Virus record (IMG/VR): IMGVR_UViG_2529293140_000005
Location: 1 to 37,403 of that record
Length of the DNA: 37,403 nucleotides
Strand: one strand, 5' to 3'
Origin: a virus
Taxonomy: Duplodnaviria; Heunggongvirae; Uroviricota; Caudoviricetes
Below the pieces are notes generated by a model. It was not told the origin of the DNA. It did not search any database and saw only the letters and a program-made list of their open reading frames with translations. A program made the position numbers and the translations under genes. Shown piece after piece: positions 1-306 of the stretch (within the stretch, counting starts at the first letter, position 1; each line of letters begins with the position of its first letter).

Positions 1-230
1 AAATTCTTCAACGCTAACGTTGAGAATTTTTGCAAGCAATGCGGCGTTATAAGCATTTAATGCATTGATGCCATTAAATAAAGCACCAACGCCTGACTGT
101 CCCATCCCCATCTTGTCTGCGACAGATTCCTGGGATAAGCCAAGTTCATTTTTCTTTTTTCATAAATAGCTTTAAGGCGACGTGCGTCCTCAAGCTGCTC
201 TTGTGTTAATGGTTTCTTTTTTGCGCTCAT
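1..230 (-). pseudogene. cI: cI repressor, N-terminal part (gene continues past the window start); frameshifted as sequenced
   Basis: Minus-strand ATG at 230..228. Translation gives [25 protein letters not shown], then a 6-A run (T-run 151..160 on +) shifts frame to a stop at 59..57. The next frame reads [49 protein letters not shown], which continues the lambda cI sequence as I recall it. Confidence 0.6.
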
Positions 231-240
231 ACGTTAAATC

Positions 241-306
241 TATCACCGCAAGGGATAAATATCTAACACCGTGCGTGTTGACTATTTTACCTCTAGCGGT
301 GATAAT
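241..306. promoter_or_regulatory. Right operator cluster oR3 (241..257), oR2 (264..280), oR1 (288..304) with PR promoter (-35 TTGACT 278..283, -10 GATAAT 301..306)
   Basis: Three 17-bp partially palindromic sites: TATCACCGCAAGGGATA, TAACACCGTGCGTGTTG, TACCTCTAGCGGTGATA. They lie between divergent cI and cro, with a 17-bp spacer sigma-70 promoter facing cro. Confidence 0.75.

Follow-up and report, generated by a model that had tools for sequence, protein, structure and literature searches.

The window, by which we mean the whole stretch of DNA analysed here (37,403 nt), begins inside a lambda-type repressor gene and continues through the right operator region into cro and cII. The following features were located in this part.

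1..230, minus strand: first 76 codons (5' part) of a 237-codon cI of the lambda/HK97 type, truncated by the window start
237..265, minus strand: PRM, with the -10 hexamer TAGATT at 237-242 and the -35 hexamer TAGATA at 260-265
241..257, no strand assigned: oR3, TATCACCGCAAGGGATA, same as in lambda
264..280, no strand assigned: oR2, TAACACCGTGCGTGTTG, same as in lambda
278..306, plus strand: PR, with the -35 hexamer TTGACT at 278-283 and the -10 hexamer GATAAT at 301-306
288..304, no strand assigned: oR1, TACCTCTAGCGGTGATA, where the A at 295 is the HK97-type natural allele
331..531, plus strand: cro, 66 codons, intact, 65 of 66 residues identical to lambda Cro (K39N)
539..584, plus strand: nutR, with boxA CGCTCTTTT at 539-547 and the boxB hairpin TCGCTGACAAAGCGA at 570-584
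669..965, plus strand: cII, 98 codons, HK97-type, intact

According to the list of open reading frames and their translations, cI starts at position 230 of the minus strand and runs from 230 to 1. The positions of PRM, PR and nutR were transferred from the annotated mEp234 record (EF120460), those of PRM being moved by -1 to account for a T absent from the window; in the same coordinates, the leaderless cI transcript starts at position 230. Several properties characteristic of a lambda-immunity switch are found together here, namely, three 17-bp operators with the lambda spacing, overlapping divergent PRM and PR with hexamers identical to those of lambda, a lambda-type Cro encoded divergently from cI, and, after restoration of one base, a repressor with an N-terminal helix-turn-helix domain nearly identical to that of lambda CI. 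Hence, judged from the sequence, the region is the ordinary lambda/HK97-type immunity switch (cI, PRM, oR3-oR2-oR1, PR, cro) of a lambdoid prophage, and HK97-type immunity regions as such are already known.

In Escherichia coli E482, the prophage is inserted at the argW tRNA gene, and the window constitutes its right arm. Beyond position 1007 it is a different lambdoid mosaic with its own O, DnaB-like P, nin region, Q and lysis genes, while its virion module is 97-98% identical to those of prophages in E. coli ST540 and in strain 361. At the other end of the prophage, two further features were identified.

34999-36195, minus strand: IntS-type tyrosine integrase (398-aa open reading frame), adjoining the tail end of the prophage
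36321-36395, minus strand: tRNA-Arg(CCT), between the integrase gene and yfdC

The last position of the window falls at the start codon of yfdC, and int and the early-left genes lie at opposite ends of the prophage, in the style of KplE1/CPS-53. The tRNA was the only RNA found by an Rfam scan of the window. Compared to the close relatives (ST540 and strain 361), approximately 45 other genes of the window are full length and in one frame, the intact set comprising cro, cII, the DnaB-like helicase gene (P), the nin region, the lysis, terminase, head and tail genes, and int. O and Q have no homologue with at least 70% identity in these two relatives and were judged by their uninterrupted reading frames only, although the length of O (299 aa) equals that of its annotated counterpart in strain 361. 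The N gene (127 aa) was called in the left arm.

Several genes of this mosaic deserve a separate mention. The nin region contains a gene for an HNH_3 endonuclease (168 aa, window 4821-5327); neither of the annotated relatives, ST540 and strain 361, has it there, and hence it is probably a mobile, homing-type insertion. A cargo-like block (window 33395-34994) lies between the tail-spike module and int. It consists of two small open reading frames without a Pfam match, one of them labelled an S24/S26 peptidase in the annotation of a relative, and of a 343-aa protein with a glycine-rich domain (PF21722); the block may represent a moron or a defence locus. In the head module, the N-terminal part of a 537-aa protein (window 14066-15679) is a NUDIX domain, to which DUF2213 is fused, and such a joining of a NUDIX hydrolase to a virion-module protein is unusual. 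Finally, the Logan contig of run SRR024131, which coincides with window 522-6103 at 100% identity and so assigns this run to E482, begins at window position 522, at a mosaic boundary between cro and cII, and many other prophages start to match the window near 524-538, which hints at a second lambdoid prophage in E482 that would share the cII-side sequence.

The repressor gene, as deposited, is not readable in a single frame. The relevant features are the following.

155..160, no strand assigned: mononucleotide run T6 (A6 in the cI sense), the site of an apparent 1-nt deletion
57..230, minus strand: 57-codon open reading frame produced by the apparent frameshift, 25 true CI residues followed by 32 out-of-frame ones

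After the run, CI residues resume in a frame displaced by 2 nt (window 1-228, minus strand) and continue for about 51 residues up to the window edge. In the alignment, the run at 155-160 contains six T, compared to seven in lambda and HK97; more generally, seven T are found in lambda, HK97 and six further functional lambda-immunity phages (seven of these eight having been aligned together). In comparison of window 1..230 with HK97 28722-28952, the single absent T is the sole difference. If one base is put back, 77 residues are obtained, of which 75 coincide with lambda CI (PDB 1RIO/1LMB, E = 6e-43), so that the identity of the gene is established far above chance. Thus, the earlier note was right in describing lambda-matching residues in two frames, a junction at a six-base run and a stop after 57 codons, and also in expecting seven A in the run, since both lambda and HK97 have seven. 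The lambda sequences that it had used for the N-terminus of cI and for oR1 agreed with the actual ones on comparison.

A deletion of a single base could be either a genuine mutation or a miscounted run, and the context of the deposited sequence bears directly on this choice. Window 1-12036 coincides at 100% identity with scaffold GL871809.1 of the draft assembly GCA_000190835.1, which was reached through an exact match of the O protein and whose source record names the strain as E. coli E482 (EGB37334.1). On this scaffold (denoted L007 below), a run of 320 N (L007 8543-8862) lies inside cI, its last N only 2 nt before window position 1; hence, the window begins at a contig end. The HK97 sequence truly absent at this gap amounts to only 63 nt. 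The frameshift is 155 nt from the contig end that abuts the gap.

The sequences on both sides of the gap differ from HK97 in the same manner. To the right, 340 nt contain no substitutions and one change, T7>T6; to the left, 443 nt covering the 3' part of cI and its downstream flank also contain no substitutions, the differences being T6>T5 and A6>A4. Thus, all changes across 783 aligned nucleotides are pure changes of run length, as would be expected of a sequencing artefact. The contractions are also clustered near the contig ends. The cI gene of HK97 has four runs of at least six bases, and the three nearest to the gap (HK97 28545-28550, 28631-28636 and 28876-28882) are contracted; their distances to the nearest contig end are approximately 21, 107 and 157 nt, so that all lie within about 160 nt of the gap flanks, while the fourth one (219 nt from the contig end) and every run of five bases are unchanged. 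Therefore, the deposited cI carries three homopolymer frameshifts and a gap, in place of the expected uninterrupted 237 codons ending with an S24 self-cleaving C-terminal domain.

An error of the same type occurs elsewhere in the same assembly. A fourth contraction (T6>T5), situated at about L007 2924 in the left arm and thus not in the window, frameshifts a 322-codon coiled-coil-like gene that otherwise is 98% identical to its ST540 homologue; its C-terminal 57 residues carry on in another frame at 96% identity to that homologue. Generally poor assembly was considered as a blanket cause and rejected, as no further frame-breaking indel was seen in the 37-kb window: it contains 39 runs of at least six bases, and the other 38 show no frame-breaking contraction. 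Thus, the errors would be local to the gap and the left arm.

We also considered how often the contracted run occurs in other genomes. Among 5426 finished E. coli genomes, 612 contain this cI segment in 627 copies, and only one copy has six T; it belongs to strain AR-0428 and lies within the defective Sp1 remnant of O157. The T5 contraction was seen in 1 of 1221 copies. In other drafts, including E. coli TA054 and the DEC3A-type O157 drafts, contractions recur on a different cI allele: the TA054 draft contains both the 57-aa and the 108-aa fragments, and a 197-aa cI fragment is present on 26 contigs (DEC3A-type O157 drafts, Sp1 remnant), while seven T are found in Sakai, EDL933 and the majority of the other finished O157 genomes. 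The 7>6 contraction in Sp1/CP-933H was located at L003 2825-2998, L004 860-900 and NZ_CP044145.1 11512-11591, and among its carriers only AR-0428 is a finished genome, the others being an IMG draft and a gut metagenome contig of 1x coverage. Exact-pattern scans for the 6-T allele yielded no match among the GTDB species-representative genomes and only the O157 Sp1-type copies (L003, L004) among viral and metagenome sequences; a look-up for a gene record of the 57-aa truncated product found none. The 108-aa product of the T5 contraction is on record not only at NCBI, but also in Logan read-assemblies; hence, this contraction exists in the reads and is more than an artefact of the consensus. Overall, this distribution of alleles is what would be expected for a miscounted run, and it is unlike that of an inherited allele.

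Taken together, these observations make it very probable that the base missing from the A7/T7 run reflects a homopolymer error, made in sequencing or assembly at a contig end of presumably low coverage: the clustering of the contractions at the gap, together with the other run miscounts, makes a sequencing error the most likely cause. In this scenario, thin coverage at the end of a draft contig would have led to an under-call, with T6 reported in place of T7, and the real E482 prophage would encode an intact 237-codon repressor and be normally repressed. That shallow read depth and the sequencing platform are responsible is our inference; the sequence differences themselves, the provenance of the scaffold, the gap, the clustering and the allele distribution are direct observations. 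The assembly series of GCA_000190835.1 is presumably pyrosequencing-based. Three points count against an artefact: with the other 38 runs of at least six bases intact, the error rate would have to be strongly local; the product of the T5 contraction is found at the level of Logan read-assemblies; and the finished genome of AR-0428 has the 6-T allele, so that true slippage at this run may occur.

The main alternative is that the E482 DNA truly has the frameshift, and perhaps all three contractions, and that the cI-null prophage survives owing to a repressor acting in trans from a second homoimmune prophage, or to a lesion outside the examined sequence. We regard this as unlikely. Homopolymer runs are genuine slippage hot spots as well, the 6-T allele is known from one finished genome and from 26 contigs with the O157 Sp1 remnant, some E. 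coli genomes have up to three copies of the cI segment, and the T5 contraction is seen in read assemblies. On the other hand, if the allele were real, three indels and no substitutions would have to be accepted in approximately 650 nt of cI, all of them at most 160 nt from the gap. Lambda with a frameshifted cI can grow only lytically (PMC9259030, PMC13190303), and the other examined lytic-cycle genes of the prophage are intact; hence, a truly repressor-less prophage should kill its host. The contig break of SRR024131 at position 522 weakly hints at a second lambdoid prophage that differs leftward of this point and would hence be heteroimmune. A related reading, in which the contractions are real and the otherwise intact, HK97-immunity prophage of E482 has a dead repressor and is silenced by a co-resident homoimmune repressor or by some undescribed CI-independent mechanism, is very unlikely. 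Thus, of the outcomes offered in the earlier note, a homopolymer error is the favoured one, and a defective prophage is not supported within the window, as the other genes there with close homologues are full length and in one frame.

If, instead, the A6 run served as a recoding site, low-level synthesis of wild-type CI (E-K-K-K-N) could arise from a -1 ribosomal slip or from stuttering of RNA polymerase at GAA AAA AGA. By arithmetic only, tRNA-Lys slipping by -1 (AAA to AAA) ahead of AGA would yield AAG and restore the wild-type frame and residues; AGA is a rare codon in E. coli. However, the zero-frame heptamer A AAA AGA does not correspond to the canonical X XXY YYZ, the run of six A is shorter than the nine or more bases of a long A/T slippage run, and six A are too short for efficient transcriptional slippage. 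Moreover, the arrangement is not conserved, as 626 of the 627 finished-genome copies are in frame, and two more frame breaks follow towards the 3' end of cI, beyond the gap. The probability of such recoding is practically negligible. The frameshift in the E482 cI is most likely not a real feature.

Apart from this run, a deviation from lambda is seen in oR1, which reads TACCTCTGGCGGTGATA in lambda and TACCTCTAGCGGTGATA here. The single change, G>A at window position 295, confirms the one-position difference mentioned in the earlier note. The altered base adjoins the central base pair of oR1 and lies within the non-consensus half-site. The oR regions of eight functional lambda-immunity phages, each isolated independently, were aligned together with that of the O157 Sp1 remnant: A is found in six of these phages (HK97, mEp234, CL707, HK244, HK542 and mEp332), and G only in lambda, HK544 and Sp1. 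In addition, at least 58 finished E. coli genomes contain window 1-330 exactly, including the A in oR1, except that they have seven T and an intact cI.

If the change were operator-constitutive (vir-like), it would weaken the binding of CI and add to a derepressed state, and the altered base indeed falls inside the 17-bp operator. However, the same A is carried by the six temperate phages, whose GenBank records annotate this operator as oR1 bound by CI and Cro, and it occurs together with an intact cI in those at least 58 finished genomes; besides, oR2 and oR3 are unchanged relative to lambda, and there is no second mutation in oR2, as a vir-type operator would have. Given this, a vir-like effect is highly improbable, and the suggestion of a vir-like operator mutation was not supported. 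The A in oR1 is rather a real and common wild allele of the lambda-immunity group (six of the eight phages compared), unrelated to the frameshift, and the operator that carries it is predicted to be bound by the same CI and Cro. The oR1 of lambda itself is a minority allele in this immunity group, so that a difference from lambda does not amount to a mutation.

Some lambda records of slightly lower identity were considered as candidate vir strains, but they proved to be of the cI857 type, and none was vir. One of them, phage 4W (OM475432.1), has a G>T change at the central base of oR1. A record named 'Campylobacter phage CJLB-4' (MW057783.1) is lambda itself with a C>T change, which we take to be cI857; this suggests contamination with laboratory lambda.

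Apparent pseudogenes in homopolymer runs near the contig ends of early drafts call for caution in reading prophage decay or cI-null lysogens from such sequences, and the A7 run of lambda-type cI in particular appears to be repeatedly miscounted across public drafts. If the frameshift were true, it would represent an unusual way to silence an intact lytic prophage, but the evidence points in the opposite direction. In two hybrid repressors found outside the window (P0029 and P0025; 216 and 230 aa), an unrelated N-terminal HTH is joined to the C-terminal domain of lambda CI: the join contains the cI linker, read in an alternative frame, up to the T-run that is contracted in E482. These proteins could be genuine recombinants or further frameshift artefacts.

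Among the known systems, the closest one is HK97 (NC_002167/AF069529; cI gp50, OR, cro gp51, cII gp52), with 99.3% identity over window 1-1007. Positions 1-340 are the same but for one T, and the oR1 allele, the K39N variant of Cro and the type of cII coincide as well. The differences are the seven T and the intact 237-codon cI in HK97 and, past position 1007, the O and P genes and the virion module of the window, which are not those of HK97, as well as its integration at argW.

Lambda has the same switch architecture, with identical oR2, oR3, PRM and PR, 75 of 77 identical residues in the N-terminal domain of CI, and 65 of 66 in Cro. It differs from the window in the G at position 295 of oR1 and in a few silent or conservative changes, and it lacks the apparent 1-nt deletion; to the right of cro, the genes of the window are not lambda-like. 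The laboratory phages lambda cI26 and lambda vir have a frameshift in cI, as does the deposited E482 sequence, and are unable to maintain lysogeny (PMC9259030, PMC13190303). These are free lytic phages, whereas here the prophage is integrated, adjoining argW and yfdC, which a true cI-null genotype would not permit without repression from another source.

In O157:H7, the defective Sp1/CP-933H remnant resembles the window in its lambda-type cI, oR and cro and in the sporadic 7>6 contraction, but has a different cI allele and the lambda-type G in oR1; as this remnant lacks lytic genes, loss of cI would be tolerated there. Finally, the KplE1/CPS-53-type argW prophages share with the window the order of tail genes, IntS-like integrase, tRNA-Arg(CCT) and yfdC; in comparison with KplE1 of K-12, which we take to be a remnant, the prophage in the window appears to be complete.
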